Shown here piece after piece: positions 14,884-38,459 of a DNA stretch of 64,000 nucleotides. Position 1 is the stretch's first letter. Every line of letters begins with the position of its first letter. Source of the stretch: Candidatus Harrisonbacteria bacterium (lineage in GTDB: Bacteria > Patescibacteriota > Minisyncoccia > UBA6257 > 02-FULL-45-10c). The notes below the pieces were generated by a model. The model did not search any database, was not told the origin of the DNA, and saw nothing but the letters and a program-made list of their open reading frames with translations. The stretch is taken from positions 33,412 through 97,411 of the forward strand of contig JACPTS010000001.1 in assembly GCA_016192685.1 (NCBI GenBank). Reading direction: 5' to 3'. The position numbers and the translations under genes are program-made.

Positions 14884-16410
14884 ATGAAAAAACGCGAATC
14901 AGAATATAAACCATTGTTGTTTACCACAACACTTAGAAATCCAGAACGATTAAAATGGTTTTTAGGTGTGCTTAAAGATTATGACGGACAAGTTCTCAAC
15001 GATACATTGGCTGAAGAAATTGCTGGTGAAATTATTCGAGTAGGCCTTTATAAACCGATCAAAATTAGTTCGACTGTTAAGAAGAAAATAGAAACCAAAG
15101 AGCCTCTGTCTGACAGGGAAGTCCGAATAGTGCTTGCTAATAATCCCCAAAACCATAAAGAAGCCGGTTTTAGTAAGGGCTGGGCTTCTAGATTTGATAC
15201 ATGGTTCAAAATAGCTAAAGAGCTTGGATTCGTTTATTACCAAAATGGCAAAAAAATCAGATTCTCTGAAATAGGGCTCAGGTTGGTTGATAATGAGCAC
15301 CCTGAATTTGAACAGCAGGCCTTTCTCAACGCATTCGTAAAATATCAGAGCAATAGCCCTTTCCGGAGAGTATTAAATGAAAATGCCCCTTTGATTTTAT
15401 TGTTAGGTGTAATTAAGAGAATAAATGCCGATAAGAGGTTTAACGGAACCGGAATTTCAAAGTTAGAATTGCCCTTAGTAATTTTCTGGAAAGATAACAA
15501 CGCAGAAAAGCTATATCAACTTATAAAGAAAATAAGAAAAGAGTACGGCTATAATCCGAGCTGGGAAGTTATCGTAGATATTTGCGTGAATCAAATAATG
15601 GGCGGCGAGTTCAAAAAATTTAACCACAAGTCCATAATGGTGGACTATCCGGATGAATTTATTAGAAAAATGCGATTGACCGGCTTGATCTCTTTAAGAG
15701 GAGCTGGTCGATTTGTTGATATAAATAAAAATGAACAAGCTAAGGTTGATTATGCTTTAGCGAATTATTCTCAATACAAAAAATACGCTTCAGAGGAAGA
15801 ATATTTTGAATACATGTCAATGGTGGATGAGAATCTTCTCTCGTTCGTTGCCAAACCAGTCAGCATTGGAGAACGCGATAAATTCTTGACTAAATGGATA
15901 AGCATTTATTCTTGGCAAAAAATTACTGACGAACTGCTTATTTTAGCTAAAGACAAACTGACAAAAGATGATATTTTGAAGTATTTATCAAGTCCAGTAA
16001 GGTTAGAGTTTCTTGTTGCTTTGGCGGTAAAATCTAAATTCCCCGATGTAAAGGTTATTCCTAACTATCCTTATGACGACGAGGGTTTACCGACGTCAAC
16101 GGCTGGCGGTATCGGTGATAAGGGAGATATTGAATGTTATGAGAGTGTTAATGGAGTACTGATTGAAGTGACTATGTCAGAGGGGAGAATACAAACAGTT
16201 ATGGAGATCTGGCCAATCGCTAGGCATTTAGAGGAGTTCAGTAAAAAAGTTGAACATTCGATGTGTTATTTCGTTGCCCCAAGTATTTTTAGAGATTCTG
16301 TACGGCAGATCGAATTTGTAAAAGAGAAAGACAATCTTTCTATTTTACCCAAGACCATCAAAGACTTTTTGAATCATTTAGAAAGTAGCAAGTCTCTATA
16401 CCCAGCATAA
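14884..16410 (+). CDS. candidate restriction endonuclease partner of the two methyltransferases (508 aa; possibly type IIS, AlwI-like; family not verified)
   Basis: operon position immediately after two adenine MTases; size fits type IIS/nicking enzymes; no unambiguous catalytic motif identified by eye. Confidence 0.35.
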   Translation: MKKRESEYKPLLFTTTLRNPERLKWFLGVLKDYDGQVLNDTLAEEIAGEIIRVGLYKPIKISSTVKKKIETKEPLSDREVRIVLANNPQNHKEAGFSKGWASRFDTWFKIAKELGFVYYQNGKKIRFSEIGLRLVDNEHPEFEQQAFLNAFVKYQSNSPFRRVLNENAPLILLLGVIKRINADKRFNGTGISKLELPLVIFWKDNNAEKLYQLIKKIRKEYGYNPSWEVIVDICVNQIMGGEFKKFNHKSIMVDYPDEFIRKMRLTGLISLRGAGRFVDINKNEQAKVDYALANYSQYKKYASEEEYFEYMSMVDENLLSFVAKPVSIGERDKFLTKWISIYSWQKITDELLILAKDKLTKDDILKYLSSPVRLEFLVALAVKSKFPDVKVIPNYPYDDEGLPTSTAGGIGDKGDIECYESVNGVLIEVTMSEGRIQTVMEIWPIARHLEEFSKKVEHSMCYFVAPSIFRDSVRQIEFVKEKDNLSILPKTIKDFLNHLESSKSLYPA

Positions 16411-16415
16411 ATAAT

Positions 16416-17156
16416 ATGTCTACGCAAAGAGGAAAAATCGTAAGTGCCGTCTTACAGATTCTAAAAGATAAACCAGAGGGCATTAGGTACTCCGAATTAT
16501 TCAGAGCCGTAAAAAATACTCTCCCAGAAGCAAACGACAATACCGTTCACAGCACTATTTGGGATTTGGATAAAAAAGTTGCAGAGATAACTAAACCAGA
16601 AAGGGGAATTTTCATATTGAGGCAATATATCAAGGAGGGGGCTGAAATAAAATTACGAGAGGAAAAAATAAGTAAGGGCATAAGCGAGAGCGCTTTTTAT
16701 GCTTCATTTGCGGATTATTTGGTTAAAGACTTAGGAGAGTGTACCAAGGCCGTTCCGCTTGGGGGCAATAGGTTTGGCGATAGATGGGGAACTCCTGATG
16801 TTTTTGGTGTATATAAATTTTCTGAAACTGACCGAATACGACCGCAACCAGAAATCGTGAGCGCAGAGATTAAGACTGATACAAGTCAAATTATAACAGC
16901 ATTTGGGCAGGCATGTGCCTATAAACTTTTTAGCCACAAGGTCTATCTGGTTATCCCTGAAGATGCCGAACGAGATATAGAAAGGGTAGAATCGCTTTGT
17001 ATGCGTTTCGGTATAGGTTTGATTTTATTTGATAAAAATAATGCTGAAAATCCTAATTGGGCTATCCGTGCTCGCGCCAATAAAAGTGAGCCTGATTTCT
17101 TCTATGTAAATAAATACCTTGAACAGCTCGGAGATGACTTGAAAAATTTATTTTAG
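16416..17156 (+). CDS. Mrr-like nuclease: N-terminal winged helix + PD-(D/E)xK catalytic core
   Basis: N-terminal IVSAVLQILKD...GIRYSELF (Mrr_N-like); TPDVFGV ... VSAEIKTD fits a PD..ExK motif. Confidence 0.5.
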   Translation: MSTQRGKIVSAVLQILKDKPEGIRYSELFRAVKNTLPEANDNTVHSTIWDLDKKVAEITKPERGIFILRQYIKEGAEIKLREEKISKGISESAFYASFADYLVKDLGECTKAVPLGGNRFGDRWGTPDVFGVYKFSETDRIRPQPEIVSAEIKTDTSQIITAFGQACAYKLFSHKVYLVIPEDAERDIERVESLCMRFGIGLILFDKNNAENPNWAIRARANKSEPDFFYVNKYLEQLGDDLKNLF

Positions 17157-17158
17157 AA

Positions 17159-18058
17159 ATGAAAGACGTTAAAGATTTAATAAAACTCGACGACGTAAAA
17201 AAATTAAAGGTTATGAATATTTTTCAAAAAATCATTGAGGTATTAACGGAAATTTTCTTTCGAAAGGACACAGCTCCGCCAAGCGTACCAACGCAGCCGC
17301 ATCAAGTTATTTCGACACCGCCGTCCCCAGATCAATCGCCAGCTCCAGTTCCTCCCTCAGTCGAACCAACAGTGACAGAATCCGCAACGCCCCTAACTCA
17401 AAATCAGGAACAGCCAGTTATTCTTAAAAATGCGGGGTTCTCCATTACTGCTGAACAATTAAAACAAATAGTACCCACGTTGTCAGATAGTAAATGCAAG
17501 GAATACTTGCCACATTTGTTTCAAACAATGACAGAGTTTGAAATAAATACGCCCATTCGTTTAGCTGCATTTATTGCTCAAACCGCACATGAATCAGCCG
17601 GATATTCCGCATTTCTTGAAAATCTAAATTATTCTGCACAAGCCCTTCTCAATACATGGCCAAACCGCTTTACGCCAGAAAGTGCTGCGATTTATGCACG
17701 ACAACCAGAAAAAATCGCAAACCATGTTTATATTAATCGTTTGGGGAATGGAGATGAGGCGAGTGGTGATGGATGGCGATACCGAGGACGAGGAGTAATT
17801 CAGACCACTGGACGCATTAACTACAAAGCATGTGGAGCTGGCCTAGGACTTGATTTGATCACATCTCCAGAATTACTTGAGCAGCCCTTAAACGCTTTTC
17901 GTTCAGCTGGATTGTACTGGAAGAGTCGCAATTGTAATTCTTTTGCCGACAGCGATAATTTCACTGGGCTTACAAAGGCAATTAACGGTGGTCTAAACGG
18001 ATTAGATGATCGAAAAGCTTATTATGCACGTGCAAAATCTGTGCTGGGCATTGTATAG
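17159..18058 (+). CDS. glycoside hydrolase family 19 (phage endolysin/chitinase-like) with Pro-rich N-terminal linker
   Basis: FIAQTAHESAGYS core motif typical of GH19; Pro/Ser/Thr-rich linker PPSVPTQPHQVISTPPSPDQSPAPVPPSVEP. Confidence 0.65.
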   Translation: MKDVKDLIKLDDVKKLKVMNIFQKIIEVLTEIFFRKDTAPPSVPTQPHQVISTPPSPDQSPAPVPPSVEPTVTESATPLTQNQEQPVILKNAGFSITAEQLKQIVPTLSDSKCKEYLPHLFQTMTEFEINTPIRLAAFIAQTAHESAGYSAFLENLNYSAQALLNTWPNRFTPESAAIYARQPEKIANHVYINRLGNGDEASGDGWRYRGRGVIQTTGRINYKACGAGLGLDLITSPELLEQPLNAFRSAGLYWKSRNCNSFADSDNFTGLTKAINGGLNGLDDRKAYYARAKSVLGIV

Positions 18059-18068
18059 TTAAAAAACT

Positions 18069-18611
18069 ATGTTCAATAAAACTGATTTTGAAAACATAGT
18101 TTGGGACTTCCTGTTCACGTACAGGCAGTTTCTGCTCAACGGATATTTACATAAAAGAGTAAACCATGATGTGTATGAAGCAAATACTGCTACTTGGAAT
18201 ACCTTACTTCTCAGCTTAGAATCGGGCGCTTTACTTGGTCTGGCAAAATTACTCGAACGAAAAGACGATTTAGGAAGACCATTTAATGGTGGCTTAGGAA
18301 AGACATTCAATAATGAAGAATTTAATAACGAAGAATTAAATGGAATTTCCGAGAAGATAATAAATCTGAGACATGCCTATATAGCGCATGCTGATTTATC
18401 AAAGATGCGCGATATAAACTCTTTTCTTACCAAAAATCGCTTGACTGGCACCGATATTGTTAAAATGTTTGATGCCCTTAAAAGTAGATTGATACAATAC
18501 CAGAAAAGCTTGAAGCTCGATGTCGATGTGCAAAAATTATTTACGGAAAGTCAAAATAGCGCACTTCACGATCTGAATAGCTGGCTAAAATCTTTTAACG
18601 CAGAGTCATAG
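18069..18611 (+). CDS. hypothetical protein with Rx5H motif (LRHAYIAH), possible HEPN/Abi-like
   Basis: 180 aa, alpha-helical composition, a single R-x5-H motif; weak. Confidence 0.3.
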   Translation: MFNKTDFENIVWDFLFTYRQFLLNGYLHKRVNHDVYEANTATWNTLLLSLESGALLGLAKLLERKDDLGRPFNGGLGKTFNNEEFNNEELNGISEKIINLRHAYIAHADLSKMRDINSFLTKNRLTGTDIVKMFDALKSRLIQYQKSLKLDVDVQKLFTESQNSALHDLNSWLKSFNAES

Positions 18612-18832
18612 TAGCTATTAAGAGCGTGGGGCTAACAGTCCTTGCATCTGATGCAGTGAAGTCTCGGGAAACTCAAATAATTCTTCCCAGCGGATGGTTC
18701 GAAACTCGTTGAAACGTGGGAGCTCAGAGATTATTATTCTTTTAACGAGACAGCCTGTCTACCGGCAGGCAGGTCTCAAGTTTCCTGCCCCCCTTGGAGG
18801 GAATCCCCGCTCCCGGAGCAAAAACAAAACAA

Positions 18833-18857
18833 AAAACGGCTCACTGGGAGCCGCTGG
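18833..18857 (-). terminator. intrinsic terminator for gene 18860..19045
   Basis: minus-strand hairpin cggctc-ccagt-gagccg followed by TTTTTT. Confidence 0.7.
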
Positions 18858-18859
18858 AT

Positions 18860-19045
18860 TTAAACAACATCGGGACCAAGATCAATTACGATGCCGCAAT
18901 GCGGACATTTAAAAAATCTTCCCTCTCCGTCCTCATCTAATGGATAGGCATCCACATGGGTCCAAACTTCATCTTCCTTTCTTTCTCCCGGAAAAGGCCG
19001 ATCTTTCGTGCATTCTTTTCTTATAATAGACTTACCTTTATCCAT
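18860..19045 (-). CDS. hypothetical small protein (61 aa)
   Basis: ORF followed by terminator. Confidence 0.3.
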   Translation of the reverse strand: MDKGKSIIRKECTKDRPFPGERKEDEVWTHVDAYPLDEDGEGRFFKCPHCGIVIDLGPDVV

Positions 19046-23173: not shown

Positions 23174-23671
23174 ATGGATACAAGCAAACCGAATTTTGAG
23201 CTAATCATTGGCCTAGGAAATCCTGATAAAAAATATGAAAATACCTACCATAATGTCGGGCATCTTTTTGCAGACTACTTAAGCAGTCACATGTCACATG
23301 TCACGTGTCACATGTTAAAATCGGATGTCTACATGAACGAATCCGGAGCTTTTGTTAAAAAAATGCTTAAAAAATATGGCGCCAAACCAGAAGAGCTGCT
23401 GATTGCCCACGATGATAGTGACATTACTCTTGGAGACTATAAATTTTCTTTCGGCCGCGGAGCCGCCGGCCATCATGGCATAGAGAATATCCAAGCCGTC
23501 CTCAAAACAAAAAACTTCTGGCGGCTTCGCATTGGCATAAGACCTATAAGTCCAATAGGACTTATAAAATTAAAACGCCTCAAAGCGGGAAAATTCGTGC
23601 TTAAAAAAATCACCGCTGCCGATAAAAAAATCCTGGGAGAAATTTTTAAGCAGATAGATAGTAAACTATAA
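23174..23671 (+). CDS. pth: peptidyl-tRNA hydrolase
   Basis: LIIGLGNPDKKYENTYHNVG N-terminal signature; contains heptamer tandem repeat at 23287..23314. Confidence 0.85.
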   Translation: MDTSKPNFELIIGLGNPDKKYENTYHNVGHLFADYLSSHMSHVTCHMLKSDVYMNESGAFVKKMLKKYGAKPEELLIAHDDSDITLGDYKFSFGRGAAGHHGIENIQAVLKTKNFWRLRIGIRPISPIGLIKLKRLKAGKFVLKKITAADKKILGEIFKQIDSKL

Positions 23672-25171
23672 CTTGAAGGTAATCGTGAAGGAGACGCTCT
23701 TATCTAAATTAGCAACAATATTGGAAAGCGGCAGAGTAACGCCCCGAAAGCCTTCTTTAATCAAGGCATTTTTAAAAGCGAGAGCCGCCGCTTCGTTGTC
23801 CGCCCGGCCGCTCAATAGCGCGCTGGCCTGCTGAGAATCCATCAAAATCCGCTCCAGCGAAATGCCGCGGCCCGCCAAAACGATAATTTTAGAAAACAAC
23901 GGAGAGCGGCCAACGCTTTGTTCTTTAGCAACGGAAGCTTTATCCACTAATTGATTAAATTGCCTGGCTTTCGCCTGAAGCTCCGCCACTTCCGCTCCTC
24001 CCGGTTCTCGGACTACTACCCGCAATTGCTTCCCCAAATTAACGGAGGTTTGATAAATAACGCTGTCCGCCAAAATAAAAAGTAAAACTAAAAATCCCAG
24101 AGTGGCAATAAAAACATTACGCCAAATTTTGATAAAAAATTGAATCTGTGAATACCAGTATTCTTTTTCCGTGCCCACTGCCGTTAAACTGATTAATTTA
24201 TCCTCGGAACGCGGAATTTTTCCGCGAAGCGCGCTGCCAATAACCCCAAACCAGCCAGCCTCCAAATTCGGCAGCCCCTCCAATTTAAGATCTGCCACCT
24301 CAAATTGAAAATTTTCTTTGATAAAATTGGAAATTTCGGCATTTAAAGCCTGGGTAATTAAAATTAGCCTCCCCAGCCTCCCCTCCCAATGGCTGCCGTA
24401 AAAAGTAACCACCTTTTTAATTTCTCGGATAACGGTATCTTTAAATTCCGAAAATGGTATTTCCGAACTAAGTTCTCCGTCTGCCGGAATCAGCTTCCAG
24501 GGACTAAAGTAATGGAAATATAAATTGCCGCGGCGAAGAACCATAAAATCAATGCCGTCGCTGGCAACATTAAAAACCACCTGCGGCTTTTCAATGTCAA
24601 TTCCAACCGCCAGCGCTTGGATTGCCCGGCTGATTGCCAAAGCCGGAAACTCCACCGCTACGGCCGCGAATCCGGCCGATTCCAAACATTGCTGGTAATC
24701 ATCAATGGCGGCGCGATCGGCAAAAGCCGCCAAAACTTCCAGTTTCCCGTCTTTTTCCTGAAGGCCGATCTCCTGCCAATCGGCATATCCAGCCCCAAGA
24801 TCAATCGGAGAAATGCTTTTTAAATTCAAATTTGCCGCCTCCTCCAGGCTTTGCCCGGATAAAAGCGGCGTATTAAACACTTGAGTATAAACATTAGCCG
24901 AAGGAACGCTTAAAATAGCCAGCACTTTTTCTTTAGAACCGGCAAATTCAGCCTGCAAACGTTTTAAGCCGGCAATTAAACGGGCTTTGTCTTTAACCCG
25001 GCCGCCCCCAATAACGCCCGGCTCCAAAGTAACGGCTGCCTTTTTTAATAAGCCGTCCTGAAATTGGGCGATTCTCAAAACGGTATCTTTAATCTCCAAA
25101 CCGGCAATATTAGTTTTCGGAAAAAGCAATCCCTTGCTAAATTCTAAAAATTTTTTAAATGAAAAGACCAT
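23666..25171 (-). CDS. type IV pilus assembly PilM (actin-like ATPase) fused to PilN-like membrane/periplasmic domain
   Basis: N-terminal PilM-like domain (IAGLEIKDTVLRIAQF...), central TM helix, C-terminal PilN-like region; sits in the pilus locus. Confidence 0.55.
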   Translation of the reverse strand: MVFSFKKFLEFSKGLLFPKTNIAGLEIKDTVLRIAQFQDGLLKKAAVTLEPGVIGGGRVKDKARLIAGLKRLQAEFAGSKEKVLAILSVPSANVYTQVFNTPLLSGQSLEEAANLNLKSISPIDLGAGYADWQEIGLQEKDGKLEVLAAFADRAAIDDYQQCLESAGFAAVAVEFPALAISRAIQALAVGIDIEKPQVVFNVASDGIDFMVLRRGNLYFHYFSPWKLIPADGELSSEIPFSEFKDTVIREIKKVVTFYGSHWEGRLGRLILITQALNAEISNFIKENFQFEVADLKLEGLPNLEAGWFGVIGSALRGKIPRSEDKLISLTAVGTEKEYWYSQIQFFIKIWRNVFIATLGFLVLLFILADSVIYQTSVNLGKQLRVVVREPGGAEVAELQAKARQFNQLVDKASVAKEQSVGRSPLFSKIIVLAGRGISLERILMDSQQASALLSGRADNEAAALAFKNALIKEGFRGVTLPLSNIVANLDKSVSFTITFKL

Positions 25172-25178
25172 GAATATC

Positions 25179-25616
25179 TTATAATGATACCTCTTTTAAA
25201 GACTCTAATCTAACTTCACCGGTAGTAGAATCAACATTTAAAATTACCTCTAAACTGCGCCTTCTGGTCTGCGCCTTACCGACAGAAATTATCTTATGCT
25301 TCCCAATCGCAATACAGGGTAATTCCCGGCAGACCGAAACATCAGCGGAATAATTCCCTACCGCCAAAGTAGTGGTAGCGCTGGTATAAGTTTTATCCCT
25401 AACCAACTTCAGGATGGCATCTGCCGCGCCGGCTTTGGCCGCCAGCATCGCATCCGCGGATAATTTATTGCCAAACTCCGATTCAATAAAAATATACGAA
25501 GTAGCTGTAATCGCAATAATGATTTCCGCCACTAAACCGCCAAGAATTAAAATCGTCGGCAAAGCCGCTACTCCCTTATTTTGACACTTGATACTTGACA
25601 CTTGACACTTAAACAT
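25179..25616 (-). CDS. pilus-associated single-TM protein (PilO/minor-pilin-like?), 145 aa
   Basis: N-terminal TM helix, context between pilM/N and pilin-like genes; N-terminus encoded by heptamer repeat 25581..25608. Confidence 0.3.
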   Translation of the reverse strand: MFKCQVSSIKCQNKGVAALPTILILGGLVAEIIIAITATSYIFIESEFGNKLSADAMLAAKAGAADAILKLVRDKTYTSATTTLAVGNYSADVSVCRELPCIAIGKHKIISVGKAQTRRRSLEVILNVDSTTGEVRLESLKEVSL

Positions 25617-25618: not shown

Positions 25619-27445
25619 TTAACGGGACCAGTTAATAATTACGTCATCAACCCGCGGCAAACTCGCGCCAGCCGCGTCAAAAAACGCCTTATACCTGAAA
25701 TAACGCTTGTTATTATGGTCAGCCGAACGGACTTTCGCCTGAACATTCGGGCCAGCCGGCGCGTAATAACCTGCGCCAGAGCCATCGGAACCCAAATAAT
25801 TCCACGGGCCGGAACTGCTGTTGGAAGAAGCAATCTGGAATTTCACCGCCGTTCCGGACGGCTGGTTGCCCTGCCACATAATGCTATTTAAAGCCGCGCC
25901 GCCGGAAACGCCGGTATCAAACACGCTGGAAATCAAAATACAATTGCTATCGCAACTGGCCGGGATATATTCCAACCCCTGAGGATGCTTAAACTGCCCG
26001 TTACCGGTGCCGTTAGTCCCCCACTTGGTAACAAAAATCCCGAAACCGTCAAATTTCTGGACACGGTCATTATCGCCGTCGGAAACATAAATATTATTTG
26101 CCTGATCGGCAGTCACGCTTTGCGGTTTATTAAACTGCCCGTTACCGGTGCCGTTGGTTCCCCATTTCAGAAGAAAATTACCATTGGAGTCAAATTTCTG
26201 GATTCTGTCATTCCCAAGATCGGCAACAAAAATATTGTTTAAATTATCAACGCCAACGCCTTGCGGGAATTTAAACTGCCCGTTCCCGGTGCCGTTAGTT
26301 CCCCACTTCAAAAGAAAATTCCCGCTGGAGTCAAATTTCTGGACGCGGTCATTATCACGGTCAGCGACATAAACATTATTGGCGCTATCCACTGCCACAT
26401 CCTGCGGCTTTTTGAATTTTCCGTCACTGGAACCGTTAGAACCCCACTCCAGAAGAAAATTGCCGCTGGAATTGAATTTTTGAATCCGGTCATTATCTAA
26501 ATCAGCGATATAAATATTATTAGCGCTGTCTATCGCAATCCCCTGGGGATGCCCAAATTCTCCGGGGTCATTTCCGCTGGTACCCCACTTCAAAAGAAAA
26601 TTCCCGCTGGAGTCAAATTTCTGGACGCGGTCATTGTCTTTATCCGTAACATAAACATTATTCAGGCTGTCAATCGCCACTCCATACGGTTTTTTAAACT
26701 GCCCGTTACCGGTGCCGTTAGTCCCCCACTTGGTAACAAAAATCCCGAAACCGTCAAATTTCTGGACACGGTCATTATCGCGGTCAGCGACATAAATATT
26801 GACTAAATTATTAGTAACCGGCGTAATAGAGCCGGACGTGGTGGTAAAATCAACATTGGTCTGGGAAGTAAATTTATTATTTACTGAAGTTATCGGGCCT
26901 TCCTGTCCGGCGCCGCCGGACCAATCGGTCTGGCGGAAAACTTCATTTGGCCAGCGAGTTAAATAAACTTCTGACGTAACAATTGGCGAAGAACCGCTGA
27001 TTGACCAACTCGCCGCTCCGGTAATTTTTTGGGTGGAAGGGTCATCATTTAAAGCATTATAAACCGATTCAATATTGCCGCTGGCATTCCGGGAAACATT
27101 TTCAATATAAAAATAAACCGTATAAACATTGTTATTGACGTTCGTCTGCTGGTCACCGCTCTCAATCGCCAGCTGACCGGTAGAAGTGGCGACATAATAA
27201 TGATTAGCTGAACCTTTATTCAAGCCATAAAGATTTTGCCAATTCTTTCCTCCTAAAGCAGCGACATTATCAGCCATGGAATTAATCAAAGACGAAGCAA
27301 TTTCATATTGCTGGGACAGCTGGCTGGAACGGAGCACTAAAAATAAAGCTCCGGAAGCAACTCCAAGCATGGTTACGCCAACGCCTAAAGCAACGACTAG
27401 CTCAATTAAAGATTGGCCGCGAACCGAATTTCTGTCCCAAGACAT
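25619..27445 (-). CDS. pilin-like (type IV prepilin N-terminus) protein with six-bladed NHL-repeat beta-propeller
   Basis: N-terminal GQSLIELVVALGVGV prepilin-type helix; six ~47-aa NHL repeats (DRDNDRVQKFD..G.F...WGT.GTGNGQF..P.GV.VD..NN.YV.D). Confidence 0.6.
   Translation of the reverse strand: MSWDRNSVRGQSLIELVVALGVGVTMLGVASGALFLVLRSSQLSQQYEIASSLINSMADNVAALGGKNWQNLYGLNKGSANHYYVATSTGQLAIESGDQQTNVNNNVYTVYFYIENVSRNASGNIESVYNALNDDPSTQKITGAASWSISGSSPIVTSEVYLTRWPNEVFRQTDWSGGAGQEGPITSVNNKFTSQTNVDFTTTSGSITPVTNNLVNIYVADRDNDRVQKFDGFGIFVTKWGTNGTGNGQFKKPYGVAIDSLNNVYVTDKDNDRVQKFDSSGNFLLKWGTSGNDPGEFGHPQGIAIDSANNIYIADLDNDRIQKFNSSGNFLLEWGSNGSSDGKFKKPQDVAVDSANNVYVADRDNDRVQKFDSSGNFLLKWGTNGTGNGQFKFPQGVGVDNLNNIFVADLGNDRIQKFDSNGNFLLKWGTNGTGNGQFNKPQSVTADQANNIYVSDGDNDRVQKFDGFGIFVTKWGTNGTGNGQFKHPQGLEYIPASCDSNCILISSVFDTGVSGGAALNSIMWQGNQPSGTAVKFQIASSNSSSGPWNYLGSDGSGAGYYAPAGPNVQAKVRSADHNNKRYFRYKAFFDAAGASLPRVDDVIINWSR
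25960..26815. repeat. six near-identical ~141-bp tandem coding repeats (NHL units)
   Basis: first and last units nearly identical at DNA level; explains spurious plus-strand ORFs 25985..26806. Confidence 0.8.
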
Positions 27446-27462: not shown

Positions 27463-27705
27463 CTAAAAAGGGGCAGTCAGACTATTAAGAATTTTAGTTT
27501 TTTGCTGGGGAGTTAAAGTTTCTTTATGCTTGGCATTTAAAGTGGATAAAATCCGTGCTTTTTCCTCCGCGCTTAAAGCCGGCGGCGAAAAAACCGGACT
27601 GGTCCCGGCTGGACTTAAAAATCGGCCGCTGTTAAGCGAACTATACCAAATCAAAAACGCCAAAACCGCCACGGAAAAAATTATGATTAAATATTTATTA
27701 TTCAT
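27463..27705 (-). CDS. small membrane-anchored protein (80 aa)
   Basis: N-terminal TM helix. Confidence 0.3.
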   Translation of the reverse strand: MNNKYLIIIFSVAVLAFLIWYSSLNSGRFLSPAGTSPVFSPPALSAEEKARILSTLNAKHKETLTPQQKTKILNSLTAPF

Positions 27706-27713: not shown

Positions 27714-28316
27714 TTATCGAAAGCAGGAGAACGTGCAAGAACTGAAACTTTGGGCCCGACCCTGAACCGACGCGGAATTTTGGTTCTCCACACTGCAAAC
27801 TTGGCCTGCAAAAGAGCTTGGTAGCATGATTCGCTCTCCGGCATTGCACTTGCATGTCGGATTATTATAAGGAAAATCTTCAGCCACCACTCCGCAAGTA
27901 CCGACATAAGAGCTGCTCAGCGTGGTAAGTGCCCAGGCCGCGTTGCCGTTCACGTCCGAGGCAGTCAGCACCTTGTTTGCCTCCGGGCTTCCGCCGCGGA
28001 TGCGAAGCTGGCCGTTAACGTCAAGTTTTTGCGAAGGGTCAGCCGCGCCAATGCCGACGTTGCCTGTCATCAGCAAAATAGGAGACGCATCCATCCTCAA
28101 CTTTACATACCCGCCTTGATACGCTGACAGCGAGGCATCATTTGCAACTGAATCCCATGTCAGCGAGACGCGGCCATCCACGTCTGAAGCCGTCCCTTCA
28201 CCCGAAGCAAATCCGCCTATGACAGATAACGTCCGATTTGGATTCGCCGTCCCAATGCCAACATTGCCGCTGGAAACAATTAAGCCGTTAACAGCGCCGC
28301 CGGTGTTTAAAATCAA
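27714..28316 (-). CDS. fibre-like secreted protein, paralogue A (TTG start; GNVGIGT(A/T)NP motif; Cys-rich C-terminus)
   Basis: first 23 codons and ~120 bp upstream identical to paralogue B; upstream ATG-initiated signal peptide lies in the +1 frame. Confidence 0.4.
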   Translation of the reverse strand: MILNTGGAVNGLIVSSGNVGIGTANPNRTLSVIGGFASGEGTASDVDGRVSLTWDSVANDASLSAYQGGYVKLRMDASPILLMTGNVGIGAADPSQKLDVNGQLRIRGGSPEANKVLTASDVNGNAAWALTTLSSSYVGTCGVVAEDFPYNNPTCKCNAGERIMLPSSFAGQVCSVENQNSASVQGRAQSFSSCTFSCFR

Positions 28317-28488
28317 GCCGCCAGTTTTAGACTGGCCGGTAGAGCCGGTATTAAGAGGCGCGGCCGCGTTGCCGCCGGGCGGAGCAACTATAAACCGATA
28401 GCAAAACCACTATGCTAAGAATGATGACTTTTAAGGAATCTTTAATTATGTAGGTCATAAATATCTTAATTATATCATATATTATTTC

Positions 28489-28989
28489 TCATTGGTTGCC
28501 GATCGCCATAACCGTTACCACGCCCGAGTCTAACGGATTGCCGTCATAATTGCCACAGCCGACATAGGCCTTGTCACTAGTAAAAGGATAGAAAATTGTA
28601 CCTCTACCCAGCTGAAACATGATCGAAGCTGCTGCTGTATCAGTTCTCTGGCAGGCACCCGTGACAGCGTAGTTTACATTCCCGAATGGTGTCTTCCAAT
28701 AGACCGAGTAGGAACCTGTACCCTCACGTATGACCCTGAGGACATTGAAAGATTCCCGGATGGCGCAATTAGTGCTTGGGCAGCCAGCGGACGTTCCGTC
28801 AAAGTTCACCCACGCCTTAAAGATATTCTCTTTTGTGATTGTATTCGCGGCAGGCGTAGCGGGCGCAGAGCCCGTGACCTTAACCGCGCCTGAAACCTCT
28901 AAGGCCTGAGTAGGATTTGTTGTCCCAATGCCAACATTGCCGCTGGAAACAATTAAGCCGTTAACAGCGCCGCCGGTGTTTAAAATCAA
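28489..28989 (-). CDS. fibre-like secreted protein, paralogue B (same N-terminal module, different C-terminal domain)
   Basis: as above. Confidence 0.4.
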   Translation of the reverse strand: MILNTGGAVNGLIVSSGNVGIGTTNPTQALEVSGAVKVTGSAPATPAANTITKENIFKAWVNFDGTSAGCPSTNCAIRESFNVLRVIREGTGSYSVYWKTPFGNVNYAVTGACQRTDTAAASIMFQLGRGTIFYPFTSDKAYVGCGNYDGNPLDSGVVTVMAIGNQ

Positions 28990-29165
28990 GCCGCCAGTTT
29001 TAGACTGGCCGGTAGAGCCGGTATTAAGAGGCGCGGCCGCGTTGCCGCCGGGCGGAGCAACTTGTCGGCTCTACCCAGCCGCCTTGCGCCAGCACTAAAT
29101 AAACCGATAGCAAAACCACTATGCTAAGAATGATGACTTTTAAGGAATCTTTGATAAGGTGGAAC
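28990..29165. repeat. duplicated 5' module (copy 2; copy 1 at 28317..28440) with 36-nt indel
   Basis: direct comparison of the two upstream regions. Confidence 0.8.
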
Positions 29166-29186
29166 ATAAATTTAAATAATTACTAA

Positions 29187-30698: not shown

Positions 30699-31904
30699 TT
30701 AAATTCCTCCAACTAATTGGTAAATCGGTACAATCACGGAAACCGCGATGGTGCCAATCATAACTCCGATAAAAAGAAGCAGTATCGGCTCTATGAAAGC
30801 CACCAGTACTTTTAAGGCTGAATCAACTTCTGATTCATAAAAAAGCGAAAGGGTTTTTAAAATTTCCTCAATATGGCCGGCTCTTTCGGAAACCGCGATT
30901 AAATTAGTCACCACCAGAGGAAATTCCGGCTCCCTGCGGAAAGCTTCACCGATAGTCAAACCCTTGGCAATTCCCTCCCGCGCGATTCGACGGAGACTAT
31001 CCCGCATTTTTTCCGAACCAACGGCATCAGCGGTAATTTCCAAAGACTCAATAATCGGCAGGCCGGATTTCATTAAAGAAGCAAGGGTGCTCGTAAAACG
31101 CTGGAGCGCCAATTGCTTGGAAACATTCTTAATTACCGGCAAACGGGCGCTTAAAAAGGAAAGAGTTTTTTTCCCCAAGTAAGAATTTATAAAATACCAC
31201 CCGCCTACCGCGACTGCCGCCAATAAAGGAAAAATTATCAGCGCATTGGCATTTAAAAATAAGCCGACGCCGAAAACAATCCGGGAAAAAATCGGCGGCC
31301 GGATGCCGCTGGAAATAAAAATATTGGCGATTTTCGGCAAAGCAAAAGTCACCAAAAGAATCAGCATCAAAAATGACATTACCAGCAAAATAATCGGATA
31401 GATTAACGCTCCCTGAACTTTATTCTTCAATTCTTGCTCCTTGCCGAGGGAAACGCTTAAATTATCCAGCACTTCGGTTAAATTCCCGGAGGCTTCTCCG
31501 GCCTTGATTAAATTCACAAAAGTTACGGAAAAATATTTTGGGTATTTGGCAAAAGTAGTGTAAAAAGGATTGCCCTTTTCCAGATTAGTCTTAATTTCTA
31601 TCAGCAAAGCTTTTAGAATGGGCTTGTCAAAATCATTGATTAAAATATCAATCGCCCGGAAAAGGTCGGTGCCGGCTTTCAGCATTAGCGCTAAATACCG
31701 GGATAAAAAAACTTTGTCGGAAATGGAAATAGTCTGGCCAAAAACTTTAGTGCCGCCGATATCATAAGCTTTAAGGACTTTAATAGAAACCGGCCGCCAG
31801 CCTTTACCGGCTAAAAATTGCAAGACTTCCGCCGAACCCCGCGCTTCTAGCTCTCCTTCGGTTACTCTGCCGTCTGCTTGCGATGCGATGTAGTGAAATT
31901 TCAT
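30699..31904 (-). CDS. pilC: type IV pilus assembly platform protein PilC (GspF family)
   Basis: two GspF-type repeats, 3 TM segments, 401 aa. Confidence 0.85.
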   Translation of the reverse strand: MKFHYIASQADGRVTEGELEARGSAEVLQFLAGKGWRPVSIKVLKAYDIGGTKVFGQTISISDKVFLSRYLALMLKAGTDLFRAIDILINDFDKPILKALLIEIKTNLEKGNPFYTTFAKYPKYFSVTFVNLIKAGEASGNLTEVLDNLSVSLGKEQELKNKVQGALIYPIILLVMSFLMLILLVTFALPKIANIFISSGIRPPIFSRIVFGVGLFLNANALIIFPLLAAVAVGGWYFINSYLGKKTLSFLSARLPVIKNVSKQLALQRFTSTLASLMKSGLPIIESLEITADAVGSEKMRDSLRRIAREGIAKGLTIGEAFRREPEFPLVVTNLIAVSERAGHIEEILKTLSLFYESEVDSALKVLVAFIEPILLLFIGVMIGTIAVSVIVPIYQLVGGI

Positions 31905-31905: not shown

Positions 31906-33654
31906 TTATTCCCTGATAACTCTTAATACTTCCTCAATGGTCGTCATTCCACGCTCTACTTTCCGAAGGCCGTCTTCAAACATGGCCAGCATGCCTTTTT
32001 GGCGGGCTGATTTTCGCAATTCATCCAAAGAAAAATCAGGAGCGGCGATATATTTTCCGATTTCCTCATCAACCGAAAGCATCTCAAAAATCCCAATCCG
32101 GCCCTTTAATCCGCTCTGGCCGCAGGAACTGCAGCCTTTGCCGCGATAAAAAATTTTCGCCGGTTTGTAAACTTCTTCCAAGCCCAATTCCTTCATTTGC
32201 TTCTTAACTAATTCTAACAAATGGCTGTCCGGTTTGTAAGACTCAATGCAATGAACGCAAATTTTTCCGACTAATCTTTGAGCAATCACCAAATTCAATA
32301 CGGCAGAAATTAAAAAAGGAGGAACTTTCATATCAATAAGCCGGGGAATCGCGGTCGGGGCGTCATTAGTATGCACGGTGGAGAGGACTAAATGGCCGGT
32401 TAAAGCGGCATTAACCGAAATTTCCGCGGTCTCTTCATCTCTGATTTCTCCCACCAAAATAATATTCGGGTCCTGCCGAAGGAGCGACCGGAGAGCGCTC
32501 GCGAAAGTAATTCCCGCGGCCGGATTAATCTGGGTTTGATTTACATATTTAATGTTGTATTCCACCGGGTCCTCAACCGTCACAATGTTCACTTCCGGCT
32601 TATTTAAAGTATTCAAAACTGAATATAGCGTGGTGGTTTTGCCGGAACCGGTCGGCCCGGAAACCAGCACCATTCCAAAAGTTTTTTTGATATTGTCCTG
32701 CAAAATTTTTACGTGGTCTTCCAGCATTCCGATTTCTTCAAAAGAAGGCGGGGTTTGGCTGGCGGAAAGCAAACGCATTTCGGATTTTTCTCCGTAAAAC
32801 GTCGGGATAATAGAAACCCGGATATCAATATAATCCTTGCCTAACCGCTGGCGGAAGCGGCCGTCCTGCGGGCGATTATGTTCGTCCAGCTTAAGGCCGG
32901 CCAGCAGCTTGATGCGGGCGGTAATCGCCGGATGGACTTCTTTCGGCAAACGCATAATTTCTCTTAATACTCCGTCAATCCGATACCTTGCCAAAATTCC
33001 GTCTTCTAAAATCTCCAGATGAATATCCGAAGCCCGCAAAGAACTCGCGTAAGCGACCAAATTGTCCACTACCGCCACGATCGGCAATTCCTCCGCCGCT
33101 TCTTTTTCTCCCGAAACCCGCGAACGAAGAGACGCGGAAACATTTTCTTCAATGATGCGGCGAAAATCTTCCACTTCTCCCTTGGAATAAAGCGACAATC
33201 CAACATTTAAATCTTCTTTAGAGGCCAGATAAGGCTTGATTTCCGCGCCCAAATATCTGTGCAAAAATTCAATAATTTCCAGATTGCTCGGGTCCTCCAT
33301 TGCCACCCCGAAAGAGCCGTCTTCTTCTTTCTTAAAAACTACCGCCCTTTTTTCTTTTGATATTTCTTCCGGCAAAAGATGAAGAATCTTCTCATCCGCG
33401 GATTGAGAAAATAAATTGGCTTTGCCGACCCCGAAATACCTCGCCAGCAGCTCGTCAAGATAAGATTTGGTGATAATGCCTCGGGAAATTAAAGTTTGGG
33501 GCAAATCATGCCCTAAACGGGCCGCTTCCGCCACGACGACGTCAAAAGCTTCCGGCGCGATTAAGCCGTCACTGATTAAAGCTTCTTTTAATTTTTCGTT
33601 GGGAATCTGCATTAAAATTTTAAAGTTTGCCACCACGGCAATGCTGCCAGCCAC
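31906..33654 (-). CDS. pilB: type IV pilus assembly ATPase PilB (GspE family)
   Basis: Walker A GPTGSGKTTT, Asp box, His box, tetracysteine CVHC...CSSC. Confidence 0.9.
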   Translation of the reverse strand: MAGSIAVVANFKILMQIPNEKLKEALISDGLIAPEAFDVVVAEAARLGHDLPQTLISRGIITKSYLDELLARYFGVGKANLFSQSADEKILHLLPEEISKEKRAVVFKKEEDGSFGVAMEDPSNLEIIEFLHRYLGAEIKPYLASKEDLNVGLSLYSKGEVEDFRRIIEENVSASLRSRVSGEKEAAEELPIVAVVDNLVAYASSLRASDIHLEILEDGILARYRIDGVLREIMRLPKEVHPAITARIKLLAGLKLDEHNRPQDGRFRQRLGKDYIDIRVSIIPTFYGEKSEMRLLSASQTPPSFEEIGMLEDHVKILQDNIKKTFGMVLVSGPTGSGKTTTLYSVLNTLNKPEVNIVTVEDPVEYNIKYVNQTQINPAAGITFASALRSLLRQDPNIILVGEIRDEETAEISVNAALTGHLVLSTVHTNDAPTAIPRLIDMKVPPFLISAVLNLVIAQRLVGKICVHCIESYKPDSHLLELVKKQMKELGLEEVYKPAKIFYRGKGCSSCGQSGLKGRIGIFEMLSVDEEIGKYIAAPDFSLDELRKSARQKGMLAMFEDGLRKVERGMTTIEEVLRVIRE

Positions 33655-34205
33655 TTACTTATAAGTATAGTGGAAATCGCCGCAGGCAGCCAAAAGTAAT
33701 AGAATGAAATCCTATAGGACTTATCAGACTTATTGGTCCTATAAAATTTATATGTCAAATAAGAATTCCCGGCCAAAGCCGCGATTAAAAAAATAATTAA
33801 ATAAAATAGCCACAGCGGGTGGCCGACAACAAAAAATGCCGTAGCCAGAAGATACGGCTCAATCGGCTCAAAAAACCGCTCTTGGTATTTTTTATTGAAA
33901 TATTTCGCGGCCGCCAAAAAAACTAAAGCAGCGGCTAAAGACAAAAAATAGGGATTAAAAAACCGGGTGCGCGCGAAAAAAACAAAATAATCCCAATTCT
34001 GATAAGGCGGCAAAAATAACTTGCCTAAATCATTGCTCTTCCAAGTCAGATATTGCTGCCAAGATTGATAAACGGAAAAACCAAAAATAGCTAAAATGGG
34101 CAGGACAAGGACAAGCATACCAAAAAGCCCCCGCCTGGCAGGGGTTTTGGGGATAATCAATTGAACCGCGAAAGTAATCGCTAAAATAATTAGCGGCGCG
34201 CTCAT
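33612..34205 (-). CDS. hypothetical polytopic membrane protein (197 aa)
   Basis: hydrophobic; contains 9-bp gacttat-type DNA repeats at 33700..33745. Confidence 0.3.
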   Translation of the reverse strand: MSAPLIILAITFAVQLIIPKTPARRGLFGMLVLVLPILAIFGFSVYQSWQQYLTWKSNDLGKLFLPPYQNWDYFVFFARTRFFNPYFLSLAAALVFLAAAKYFNKKYQERFFEPIEPYLLATAFFVVGHPLWLFYLIIFLIAALAGNSYLTYKFYRTNKSDKSYRISFYYFWLPAAISTILISKWLAALPWWQTLKF

Positions 34206-34214: not shown

Positions 34215-34802
34215 TTAAAGGTCTAAGCCGGCATCGGTGCCAACTTCATAAATACTATCGGCATTGCCGCCATCTTTCGTATTAGTTTCTTTATCATCAG
34301 CGCCGCCAGAGGCATAGCGAGTGCTCTCCATATTGGCATTTAATTCATAGGTCTTGGCAGTATTGTCGCAAGCATAAGAATAGAAATAATTGGTATCATT
34401 AGTCGGGTCAATCGGCAAAACTGAAAGTGCCGGACCGCCTGGAACTGCTCCAAAGTTGACCGGCACCCAGCCAGTGCCGTCCACTACTCTAGCGGCAGTA
34501 GCATCAGTAACCCTAGCCGCCGCGTGGCGGCCGGCGCAGTTAGCTGACATTCCGCCGGTCTGCACAAAACACATAGTCGCGCAAGCTTTAACGCCCGGAC
34601 CATCCAAGTCCGGGGAAGATAAAGTGGAAACATAAAGCGCCAGCGCGTTCCTTAACACGCCCATATCCTCAATTCTGGTGGTATCCCGAGCTTGGGCAAA
34701 AAGCTGGGCCGGATTTAATACTAAAACCGACACCGCGCCTAATACCGCGAGAATGCCGATAACAATGACTAATTCTAATAAGGTAAAACCTTTGGTTTTC
34801 AT
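34215..34802 (-). CDS. type IV pilin (major pilin candidate)
   Basis: MKTKGFTLLELVIVIGILAVLGAV prepilin cleavage/methylation motif; 195 aa. Confidence 0.85.
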   Translation of the reverse strand: MKTKGFTLLELVIVIGILAVLGAVSVLVLNPAQLFAQARDTTRIEDMGVLRNALALYVSTLSSPDLDGPGVKACATMCFVQTGGMSANCAGRHAAARVTDATAARVVDGTGWVPVNFGAVPGGPALSVLPIDPTNDTNYFYSYACDNTAKTYELNANMESTRYASGGADDKETNTKDGGNADSIYEVGTDAGLDL

Positions 34803-34886: not shown

Positions 34887-35255
34887 CTATTTTAGATATT
34901 CTTTAATCTTTTTCACCAAATCATCAATGGAAACCTGGGCTTTGACAATATATTCCACCACTCCCAGTTCCCGCCCCTTTTCAATATCAAGAGCCTGCCC
35001 CAAGTTGGAAATAATCATTACTGGAATTTTAGCTACTTGCGGGTCTGATTTTATTTCTTCCAGCACTTCAAAACCGGATTTGCCCGGCAGAATAATATCC
35101 AAAAGCACTAAATCCGGATTGCTGGCTTTTAAAAGCTTATTGGCCTCACTGCCGCTTTTTATGCCCACCAATTCAAAGCCTTCTTTTTTCAGCCGGTTCC
35201 CCAAAAGCGAAGACAAAAACGGGTCGTCTTCAATAAGTAAAATTTTCTTTGTCAT
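34887..35255 (-). CDS. single-domain response regulator (CheY-like receiver)
   Basis: KKILLIEDDP ... LVLLDIILPGKSG ... conserved Asp/Lys positions. Confidence 0.85.
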   Translation of the reverse strand: MTKKILLIEDDPFLSSLLGNRLKKEGFELVGIKSGSEANKLLKASNPDLVLLDIILPGKSGFEVLEEIKSDPQVAKIPVMIISNLGQALDIEKGRELGVVEYIVKAQVSIDDLVKKIKEYLK

Positions 35256-35950: not shown

Positions 35951-36265
35951 TTTTTAAAGAAAACTTTCTAGTTATCCCAACCTTATGCGGCCCGAATTTA
36001 ATCGGACAAGCAAATCGAGACTTGAGGCTCCTCGATCAAAACCTTTGCCTGCATTTTTCAATGCAGTATCGTACTCCATCAAATATAAATATTTGATTTT
36101 TGTTTAATTGATCCACGCACAGCTTCCGCTACGCGTGCCTTGTTACGACTTCTTCCATGTCACCGAATCTACCTTTATCCCGCCGAAGCGGAATTTCAGA
36201 TATCCCCGGCTCCCCTGAAGTGACGGGCGGTGAGTACAGGACTCGAGAACGTATTCACCGCGGCG

Positions 36266-36304
<39 letters not shown>

Positions 36305-36701
36305 GCGAGTTTCAGCCTCCAATCTGAACTGGGGCCATTTTTGATGGGATTAGCTCCGCCTTGCGGCTTGGCAACCCATTGTAATGGCCATTGTAGCACG
36401 AGTGTAGCCCAGGGCATCAGAGGGCCATGCGGATTTGACGTCATCCTCTCCTTCCTCCCCCAAAAAGAGGGCAGTCCCCGATGACACATATAACATCAGG
36501 TAAGGGTTGCGCTCGTTACCCCACTTAAGGGAACGTTTCAAAATACGAGCTGACGACAACCATGCAGCACCTGTCCAGCCGTTCCTTGAGAGAACATCCC
36601 ACGTTTCTGCGGGATTTCGTCTGGATTTCAAGCCCTGGTAAGGTTTCTCGCTTACTGTCGAATTGAACCTCATGCTCCACCGCTTGTGCGAGTCCCCGTC
36701 T

Positions 36702-36733
<32 letters not shown>

Positions 36734-37195
36734 TCCCAGGCGGCCTACTTAACGCGTTAGCTTCGCCACCCCGAGGGTCGATACTCGAGATAGCCAGTAG
36801 GCATCGTTTAGGGCGTGGACTACAAGGGTATCTACAATTTTGTTGCTTCGCAAAACTTTTATACTCGCTATGCTATTCTCGCTCATACTGCTGCGCGCTG
36901 GACAAAACTAATTCGCTCATAGCGGAAATTTATCACCCTAGTCGCATTCGCTCCTGGGTATCCCGATAAATTTCCTATTCGCTCAAAGTTTTGTAACCAT
37001 CGCTCCGCAACATTCGCTCAAACAGCATAACTCGTTTAATAATAGTTTTGCGTGACACAGACATTTCTGCTGTGTTCTCTGTGTTGCCATAGAGTTCGGA
37101 CTATATCATTCTCGCGCTTTGAAAAACGAATATCAATCATCTTGATACTCGTAGATCAAAGAGCGAGAATCGGCGTATAGTCTCTGAGGGGTTAA

Positions 37196-37450
37196 TTATT
37201 TTCCTTTTAATTTTTTGAGGTGTTTTTTCACGGTACGATCAACTAATTTAAACTCCGGTTCTTCCAAAATATCATGCGTTGTATATCCATATCTCTTACG
37301 GTCATTGGTTTTCCAAATTGCTTCAATAGACGGCAATCCTCTGCTTTTCAGTTCTTCATTCACGGTTTCTAGAACAGCTTTTAATTTCTTATTTGATTTG
37401 CTTGTGCAAACGATTTCTACAAACCTAAATTTTGAGTCAGGCCTTGACAT
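37196..37450 (-). CDS. intron-encoded small basic protein (84 aa from MSRPDSK), function unknown (no LAGLIDADG/GIY-YIG motif seen)
   Basis: preceded by a perfect Shine-Dalgarno AAGGAGGTG 7 nt upstream of ATG; embedded in the rRNA insertion. Confidence 0.35.
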   Translation of the reverse strand: MSRPDSKFRFVEIVCTSKSNKKLKAVLETVNEELKSRGLPSIEAIWKTNDRKRYGYTTHDILEEPEFKLVDRTVKKHLKKLKGK

Positions 37451-37803
37451 CGTCCACCTCCTTTTTAAATTAACTTCCCTGCTGGTTGTCCGCACCGACG
37501 CGTTTTCACCAGCGATTTGTTTTTGAAATTTCAAAAACAAATCGCTGGTAGCGTCGGATACGCCGGATTTTCCAGCATATAGCCGATTTTACATTCCAGT
37601 GTTGCCACTGAAAGGGACCATATGCGTCTCCGGAAAATTCCGGAGTCACTTCTTTATACCCTAAAGAGAGTGAGATTATTTTTGCGAACCAATAAAATTA
37701 TATTTGCTTCACTTATTTATCTATTTATCGTGCGGCAACATTTATTTTAATTTCTTGCCGAACTGCCGAGTTATCATAGAGAAACTTTATACAATCTAAA
37801 CGA

Positions 37804-37952
37804 GCTCTGCCTGTGTTTCGTGCGGCAACTACGGAGCTCCGAAATGCTTGGCTTTCGCGAAGCGAAAATTTCGGAGCGAGGCGTAGACGCGTTTCGCCGC
37901 AGGAGCGAAACGACGCCGGTGCCGTCAGAAATACAGGCGGAGCGAGTAAAAC
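37804..37952 (+). repeat. structured repeat family 1, copy 2 (inside the rRNA insertion)
   Basis: core identical to copies at 20079..20221 and 63517..63667; own terminal inverted repeat c(t/c)gcctgt(g/a)tttc. Confidence 0.6.
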
Positions 37953-38170
37953 TCATAGACAATTCGGCGGAGCGGCATTTTCAAAATGAATGCCGATGCC
38001 GGTAGACAAATAAGTGAAGCAAATGAGTTCGTAAAAATAACCGAACGATCCTTTTTGCTCCCCACGCTTTCGTGCAATGAGAGTCAGTAATGCGCCAGCC
38101 AAATGCTTTCGCCTTTGGTATTCCCCACGATATCAACGGATTTCACCCCTACACCGTGAGTTCTATTGGC

Positions 38171-38459
38171 CTCTCGCACACTCTAGACAAGTCCCCTCTG
38201 TACAAATGTTTCCACTAAATTGAAATCATTGATTTTGTATCAAGTTCAAGGCGCGAGGAGGAAATCGTAGGGTTACCTACCTTTCCGACTCGCAACGCAG
38301 AAATTGATCAAAATCAAGATTCCCGAAGGGTAAGGAAATTTTTGTCAGCTTCTTCGTTAGTCGTCGCTAGTGTATCTAAAGATACACTTCGCTCCTCCTG
38401 CCTTGAATTTAACTCAAAATTTCCTTATCAATTAGTGAAAATATTTGTACAGAGGGGAC
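38171..38459 (-). other. ~290-nt intervening sequence (IVS) in 16S helix region ~E. coli 650, bounded by a perfect 33-bp inverted repeat
   Basis: gtcccctctgtacaaatgtttccactaaattga ... tcaattagtgaaaatatttgtacagaggggac; flanks align to 16S; core homologous to 61408..61678. Confidence 0.7.

Follow-up and report, generated by a model that had tools for sequence, protein, structure and literature searches.

Bacteria in the Candidate Phyla Radiation (CPR, or Patescibacteria) rely on other cells, and the attachment organelles best supported for them are type IV pili. Outside the Saccharibacteria we know of no molecule that recognizes the partner, and a pilus locus of the ultrasmall Candidatus Harrisonbacteria bacterium (Parcubacteria, CPR) raises the question of whether one of its genes encodes such a molecule. 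The locus lies in a window of 64,000 nt, positions 33,412-97,411 (forward strand) of contig JACPTS010000001.1 (assembly GCA_016192685.1); coordinates below are those of the window. At 25619..27445 on the minus strand, exactly where an earlier note on this DNA had placed it, an open reading frame (ORF) encodes a 608-aa protein that we call the NHL pilin. The identical protein is already deposited, from a 608-kb contig, as 'MAG: 6-bladed beta-propeller [Candidatus Harrisonbacteria bacterium]' (MAG, metagenome-assembled genome). Our analysis indicates that it is probably a minor type IV pilin subunit whose six-bladed NHL propeller most likely serves as a binding head on the pilus tip. A gene named only "6-bladed beta-propeller" can now be read as a candidate pilus-tip component, and it offers a concrete candidate for a specificity determinant in Harrisonbacteria.

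The earlier note had described the N-terminus as pilin-like, and comparison with relatives bears this out. The sequence begins MSWDRNSVRG/QSLIELVVALGV, which read as a class III signal is MSWDRNSVRG/QSLIE: a basic leader ending in G, a hydrophobic stretch and a glutamate at +5. Every full-length NHL orthologue has a short basic leader followed by G-Q-[SA]-L-I-E. A search with the protein minus its propeller (aa 1-214 joined to 490-608) returned 625 proteins, many of them 310-350 aa long, with 97-99% of the query covered at 40-65% identity. When 72 of these propeller-less homologues are aligned, they retain the class III motif: glutamate at +5 is invariant (72/72), position -1 holds G in 60 sequences and A in 9 (G/A in 69/69), -2 is K or R in 46 of the 72, and Q at +1 and L at +3 occur in 68 each.

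Predicted structures point the same way. The AlphaFold2 (AF2) model of a propeller-less homologue, P0121 (predicted local distance difference test score, pLDDT, 92.8), consists of a helix at residues 7-65, a sheet and a beta-sandwich. The full-length NHL pilin (pLDDT 88.3) has a helix of 57 residues, from aa 11 to aa 67, and the predicted helices, that of P0121 included, are 57-59 residues long. As in pilins, whose alpha-1 helix runs to ~50 residues, the helix packs on an antiparallel beta-sheet in the predicted model. When the family profile without propeller was searched against the sequences in the PDB, it gave marginal matches only (E about 1), to the pilin alpha-1 helices of TcpA and geopilin, so that a fold comparison was needed; this found a GspI-like pilin fold in the model. 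From sequence and model together we conclude that the protein is probably a GspI/PilV-like minor pilin with an extra jelly-roll domain resembling a carbohydrate-binding module (CBM).

The propeller itself is recognized by sequence and by fold. Pfam NHL matches with E=2.6e-39, and AF2 places 24 strands over aa 215-495 at a block-mean pLDDT of 77-98, mostly above 90. Compared with PDB sequences, the 282-aa propeller matches Thin (E=9e-72) and TRIM71 (E=2e-59), as well as Pizza6 and PknD, and Foldseek gives a TM-score of 0.87-0.89 normalised on the TRIM71 and Thin NHL domains. The six blades claimed by the earlier note are confirmed in the predicted structure, with the six NHL repeats closed. The note had also called the propeller fused to the pilin. 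Its six NHL units stand, and the simple fusion does not: the junction of P0121 reads GSIKPAVSGCDGDTENCELISS and that of the NHL pilin reads GSITPVTNNL-[282 aa]-SCDSNCILISS, a comparison indicating that the complete propeller sits inserted in a loop of the jelly-roll. Such an insertion fits a propeller whose N- and C-termini adjoin. With a pilin module joined to at least one module from outside type IV pilus biology, here the jelly-roll and the NHL propeller, the protein is a modular pilin.

Genomic context ties the gene to the pilus machinery. The type IV pilus locus that the earlier note had outlined, the one operon of its kind seen in the window, is present in full, including PilB, PilC, PilM/N, a major pilin, a response regulator and a second large pilin with an FN3 domain. 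Its genes share the minus strand, overlapping or with short gaps, in the order response regulator, major pilin, 197-aa membrane protein, PilB, PilC, FN3 pilin, two frameshifted paralogues, an 80-aa ORF, the NHL gene, a 145-aa gene and a PilM/N fusion, followed by genes for peptidyl-tRNA hydrolase, signal peptidase and histidyl-tRNA synthetase (HisRS). This order gives the NHL gene PilC on one side and PilM/N on the other; PilB and the major pilin share its strand. Its stop codon is overlapped by the start of the 145-aa gene, whose slot is kept in relatives and whose putative product is a minor pilin of PilX/GspK type. Three further Parcubacteria loci (L003, L004 and L012) keep the slot between PilC and PilM.

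Several points weigh against reading the protein as a pilin with an adhesive head. Pfam N_methyl has no match on the NHL pilin itself at E<=0.01, so that the pilin call is made at the level of the family, where N_methyl (PF07963 / TIGR02532) matches 55 of the 72 propeller-less homologues at E<=0.1, the best at 8e-6. The glutamine at +1 is atypical for prepilins, and a search of the 64-kb window for a prepilin peptidase (peptidase A24) gene found none. NHL domains elsewhere bind RNA or proteins or act as enzymes. The silence of N_methyl, a database name that says just '6-bladed beta-propeller', and weak SGL and ScyF-like matches below the cut-offs would suit a protein that is no pilin: a membrane-anchored or secreted surface protein whose helix is a signal anchor, whose place among pilus genes is coincidence and whose propeller is perhaps enzymatic (lactonase- or lyase-like). 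We regard this as extremely improbable, given the conserved residues at -2, -1 and +5, the length of the predicted helix, the GspI-like fold of the model, a PilC-PilM slot conserved across Parcubacteria and a stop codon that overlaps the start of the next pilin-like gene. An enzymatic NHL/SGL role was rejected, as the matches to such families are sub-threshold only.

Having assigned the gene to the pilus, we consider the history of its repeats, which the earlier note had taken to be near-identical 141-bp copies likely to expand, contract or convert one another. Near-identity does not hold. Tandem Repeats Finder (TRF) reports a period of 141 nt and 5.8 copies at 25989-26800 with 70% matches, and the six in-register units of 47 aa (141 nt) are 62-81% identical to one another in DNA and 51-77% in protein. 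The identity between first and last unit, put at about 75 nt, is real and longer, an exact run of 88 nt. With per-site identity at its background level of 0.68-0.81, a run of this length has a probability of 2e-15 to 9e-9. Over 28 consecutive codons units 1 and 6 are identical, and because these show no synonymous difference at all we rejected chance or selection as the source of the identity; the remaining unit pairs differ by 8-15 synonymous and 12-23 non-synonymous codons per 47. Formally, the identity could still be an artefact of assembly or polishing. When set against the nearest orthologue, the tract is most like that protein's unit 1 (0.78) and least like its unit 6 (0.60), while the flanks of the window's unit 6 are still unit-6-like (0.74). 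A unit-1-like tract between unit-6-like flanks is the signature of a short conversion of unit 6 by unit 1, and we infer a local gene conversion of this kind. Other lineages have patches of their own, for example between units 2 and 4 and between units 4 and 5.

Do such exchanges also change the number of blades? The gene could encode a phase- or size-variable adhesin in which slipped-strand or unequal recombination of the 141-nt units often alters the blade number and so switches or modifies the adhesin. Exact tracts of 88 and 53 nt between units would allow this, and two shorter forms exist: P0010 is a 4-unit form of P0004, the genes being 98.6% identical apart from a 282-nt in-frame deletion whose breakpoint falls inside a 49-50-nt tract common to units 4 and 6, and in P0007, which corresponds to P0009 with five units, one unit is a 3/4 hybrid. 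Both are metagenomic, one on a 2.4-kb contig and the other without a contig on record, and their junctions show the pattern expected of a de Bruijn assembler collapsing a repeat; they are explained equally well by unequal recombination and by short-read assembly collapse. The remaining evidence speaks against a variable array. The units have diverged to the identities given above, and a 4- or 5-bladed NHL ring would not be expected to close. Of the 60 units in ten six-unit proteins, 50 are most similar to the unit that holds the same position in another orthologue, with identities of 0.67 between orthologues at the same position and 0.53-0.67 within proteins. The units are thus orthologous by position, and the six-unit array is older than these lineages and has been stable since. 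Six units are kept in fourteen distinct full-length orthologues, and among the full-length orthologues examined only the two shorter forms depart from six; the spacing is 47 aa except in P0093, which has six with indels. We therefore keep gene conversion from the earlier proposal and consider frequent variation in array size, and with it a variable adhesin, unlikely. Probably, then, the array is an ancient, structurally constrained propeller with occasional short intragenic gene conversion, to which we ascribe the 88-nt tract and also the 53-nt tract common to units 2 and 4, and not a contingency locus. Internal repeats in a propeller gene are not by themselves evidence of hypervariability.

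How might such a protein work? A prepilin peptidase would cut between G10 and Q11, and the hydrophobic alpha-1 helix, with its glutamate at +5, and the GspI/PilV-like sheet would enter the minor-pilin priming complex and finally come to lie at the pilus tip. The distal part would be the CBM-like jelly-roll, one of whose loops carries the complete propeller, and the two together would form a bulky ligand-binding head, most likely directed at surface glycans or proteins on a host or partner cell. Assembly is primed by core minor pilins, those of the GspH/I/J/K or FimU/PilV/W/X sets, which end at the filament tip (PMC8179133, PMC11623550), and bulky modular pilins are thought to be located there and to mediate adhesion (PMC8179133). 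By analogy with published modular pilins, the role of tip-displayed adhesin that the earlier note had proposed is plausible.

The closest relatives of the propeller suggest a different ligand. Among solved structures these are RNA-binding TRIM-NHL proteins (TRIM71 complexes 6fq3 and 8j72; Brat 4zlr). The protein could then be a tip receptor for DNA or another nucleic acid on a pilus of competence type, the top face of the propeller binding as in TRIM71 and Brat and serving DNA uptake in a nucleotide-auxotrophic CPR cell; DNA uptake has been proposed for CPR pili. We think this very unlikely, because the propeller is acidic (pI 5.1, 33 D+E versus 28 K+R) and because unrelated modules (LamG, Kelch, Trp-rich) fill the family's slot in relatives, which, with a CBM-like carrier, fits variable recognition of surface ligands better. 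In addition, mutants in T4P-2 (type IV pilus) pilins of the Saccharibacteria strain TM7x, pilX2 included, have no competence defect (PMC11623550). The NHL pilin resembles TRIM-NHL and PknD-type propellers in sequence and fold, as the matches above show, but its context is extracellular and on a pilin, and their ligands are not transferable to it.

A tip-displayed adhesin has closer parallels among pilus proteins. Modular minor pilins are known from Streptococcus sanguinis, where the extra module is a vWA domain in PilB and a lectin in PilC; the concept is set out, together with an InterPro survey, by Raynaud et al. (2021; PMC8179133), in whose account modular pilins act as adhesins. As in those proteins, an N-terminal pilin module of the NHL pilin carries a bulky binding module that is not specific to pili, and the gene lies in a pilus operon. 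Unlike them, it has its module in the loop of a jelly-roll and not behind a C-terminal linker, and its carrier family takes modules at several recurrent sites and also occurs in two-gene split forms. The survey dataset lists one architecture of N_methyl with NHL x3 (PMC8179133); as N_methyl misses the NHL pilin, a survey based on it would probably have missed this protein. In Saccharibacteria, PilX1 of Nanosynbacter lyticus TM7x has a jelly-roll and PilX2 a beta-propeller, and deletion of pilX2 roughly halves host binding (PMC11623550). Compared by description, the PilX2 propeller is seven-bladed, of RCC1 type and C-terminal, whereas the NHL pilin combines a jelly-roll and a six-bladed NHL propeller in one chain. 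Modular pilins and beta-propeller minor pilins in CPR are thus a published concept, of which the NHL pilin is a so far unrecognised member.

More distant comparisons mark the limits of the likeness. The PilY1/PilC tip adhesins of Pseudomonas and Neisseria also show a beta-propeller at the pilus tip, via the minor-pilin complex, and have variable N-terminal modules, some with NHL repeats. PilY1, in contrast, is a non-pilin with its own propeller family (IPR008707). We rejected membership in the PilY1/PilC family: the NHL pilin has no IPR008707-type match in Pfam or NCBIfam, its propeller is NHL and its N-terminus is that of a pilin. To GspI/EpsI/XcpV, the PilV-type core minor (pseudo)pilins and GspK it has no detectable sequence similarity, and it is far larger. 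GspK has its insertion in the pilin fold, whereas that of the NHL pilin is in the extra jelly-roll domain and not in the pilin sheet.

We then looked at what occupies the same slot in relatives. The operon of another Harrisonbacteria MAG matches this one gene by gene in the same order, with a 315-aa propeller-less homologue in the NHL slot and a plain 153-aa pilin in the FN3 slot, and a complete Parcubacteria genome has LamG modules in both. In some family members the pilin sheet is interrupted behind its first hairpin by LamG or DUF1554, and others have Trp-rich 'WAWNDxIGWI(D/S)F' repeats at the exact site of the NHL propeller. One NHL orthologue, P0012 (917 aa), bears two propellers, the second a Kelch-type propeller of ~310 aa that begins a few residues into the C-terminal jelly-roll. 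An exhaustive profile search collected 2,916 clusters at 50% identity (E<=1e-10), 207-1,533 aa long, whose members match in two to four stretches that break at recurrent profile positions; GTDB species representatives hold at least 489 related stretches, mostly in Parcubacteria-type CPR. As judged from these profiles, this is a large, previously unnamed family of pilins that swap binding modules, exposing a common pilin-plus-jelly-roll scaffold that shows interchangeable modules. The module content of the slot could serve to compare or predict partner range across Parcubacteria.

The insertion site is also where many relatives are divided. When 83 related loci were classified with hidden Markov models of the N-part and the C-part, 20 were single-chain, 17 had the N-part only, and in 46 the coding sequence was divided between two adjacent genes, the break falling exactly at the NHL insertion site. 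In a split pair, the pilin encoded first has ~210-230 aa and stops once the initial jelly-roll strands are complete; the other product, of ~290-340 aa, starts with a Sec-like signal peptide and contains Trp-rich 'WAWNDxIGWIDF' repeats as well as the C-terminal part of the jelly-roll, as in L012 at 5989-6633 and 6642-7478, one of the related loci L012-L083. The NHL pilin is accordingly a less common, fused and propeller-bearing form of a very common CPR pilus component. To our knowledge, neither the insertion-in-jelly-roll architecture nor the breadth of module swapping nor the abundance of split forms has been described. Tentatively, and as a possibility that we find on balance doubtful, the conserved jelly-roll could be a docking device: the split chains would complete one beta-sandwich in trans and so attach exchangeable, non-pilin adhesins to the tip. 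Were this so, the NHL pilin would be the single-chain, fused version of a docking system, and these episymbionts would owe their host or partner specificity to the exchange of NHL, LamG, Kelch and Trp-rich modules. In L092, L093 and L100, the split pilin genes have small genes between them whose products resemble, by eye, GxxExxY-type and four-helix-bundle ('23S rRNA intervening sequence') proteins.

Table 1. Features of the NHL pilin gene and of the surrounding pilus operon, in window coordinates.
Feature	Position	Strand	Basis
Whole gene, modular minor type IV pilin (probable), 608 aa	25619..27445	-	ORF list and database record
Predicted class III leader, aa 1-10 (MSWDRNSVRG)	27416..27445	-	Motif conservation; putative cleavage G10/Q11
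Alpha-1 helix, aa 11-67 (QSLIELVVALGV...), E15 at +5	27245..27415	-	AF2 helix 11-67; E in 72/72 homologues
Globular pilin beta-sheet, GspI/PilV-like, aa 68-167	26945..27244	-	
First jelly-roll strands, aa 168-214 (FRQTDWSGG...NVDFTTTSGSITPV), ending at the insertion site	26804..26944	-	
Six-bladed NHL beta-propeller, aa 215-496, six 141-nt units	25958..26803	-	Pfam, TRF, AF2, PDB, Foldseek
Rest of jelly-roll (galactose-binding/CBM-like), aa 497-608, from SCDSNCILISSVFDTG	25622..25957	-	Propeller-less search, P0121 model, fold comparison
88-nt tract in unit 1, identical to that in unit 6; putative conversion donor	26694..26781	-	Sequence comparison
88-nt tract in unit 6, identical to that in unit 1; putative conversion recipient	25989..26076	-	Sequence comparison
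53-nt exact tract in unit 2, same in unit 4	26583..26635	-	Sequence comparison
53-nt exact tract in unit 4, same in unit 2	26301..26353	-	Sequence comparison
PilM/PilN-like fusion	23666..25171	-	Pfam/NCBIfam
145-aa gene, pilin-like N-terminus KG/VAALPTILILGG, without E at +5	25179..25616	-	Position and N-terminal motif
Second modular minor pilin, GspH/ComGD-like N-terminus, FN3, Trp-rich 'GWAWSENIGWLSF' repeats, 502 aa	29187..30695	-	Pfam/NCBIfam
PilC platform protein (T2SSF)	30699..31904	-	T2SSF E=1e-53
PilB assembly ATPase (T2SSE + MshEN)	31906..33654	-	T2SSE E=2e-116
Major pilin (MKTKG/FTLLELVIV)	34215..34802	-	N_methyl E=8e-6
Single-domain response regulator, operon head	34887..35255	-	Family match E=1e-21

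Several neighbours of the NHL gene deserve description in their own right. The FN3 pilin, whose slot holds the 153-aa pilin in relatives, has 'GWAWSENIGWLSFN' repeats over its C-terminal third that no Pfam family covers; the same type of repeat fills the NHL site in P0159, P0162, P0171 and P0194 and occurs in the second genes of split pairs. Between this gene and the 80-aa ORF, at 27714-28458 and 28489-29167 on the minus strand, lie two paralogues, each with a signal-peptide-like start (MFHLIKDSLKVIILSIVVLLSVY... and MTYIIKDSLKVIILSIVVLLSVY...) and a body (VAPPGGNAAAPLNTGSTGQSKTGGLILNTGGAVNGLIVSSGNVGIGT...) in another frame. Both have the same 1-nt frame offset, they are identical over ~190 nt, and one has a 36-nt deletion; they may be pseudogenes, a copied error or cases of programmed frameshifting. 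The gene for a 197-aa multi-pass membrane protein (33612-34205, minus strand) separates the major pilin from PilB, whose start it overlaps, and its slot in the other Harrisonbacteria MAG holds a 196-aa gene without a Pfam match. The 197-aa protein has no prepilin-peptidase (A24) signature and no Pfam or NCBIfam match. Pfam and NCBIfam searches with the small neighbours, namely the 145-aa, 80-aa (27463-27705) and 197-aa products and the two 'MILNTGG' ORFs, gave no match; the roles proposed for them are read only from where they lie and from N-terminal motifs.

Elsewhere in the window, an island at ~7900-19000 has a GC content of 0.34-0.40, against about 0.44 in the rest. Judged from the sequences, a serine recombinase is encoded at 7942-9603 and a RadC-fused DNA methyltransferase at 12164-13984, along with another methyltransferase-like ORF, an ORF of 508 aa for a possible restriction enzyme and, at 17159-18058, a lysozyme- or chitinase-like ORF; the island has the look of a mobile element that integrated here and carries a restriction-modification system. 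The 16S rRNA gene, at 36101-39151 on the minus strand, matches Rfam in two pieces, 36101-36924 and 37940-39151, which lie ~1 kb apart with a 114-aa ORF (37196-37540) in the gap, an arrangement that resembles known insertions in CPR rRNA genes. At 45140-56969, also on the minus strand, a run of about ten genes encodes large proteins that have signal peptides and are secreted or anchored in the membrane; one of them, of 795 aa, has 'GNVGIGTTSP' motifs like those of the frameshifted paralogues, and the run may be a second surface-structure locus.

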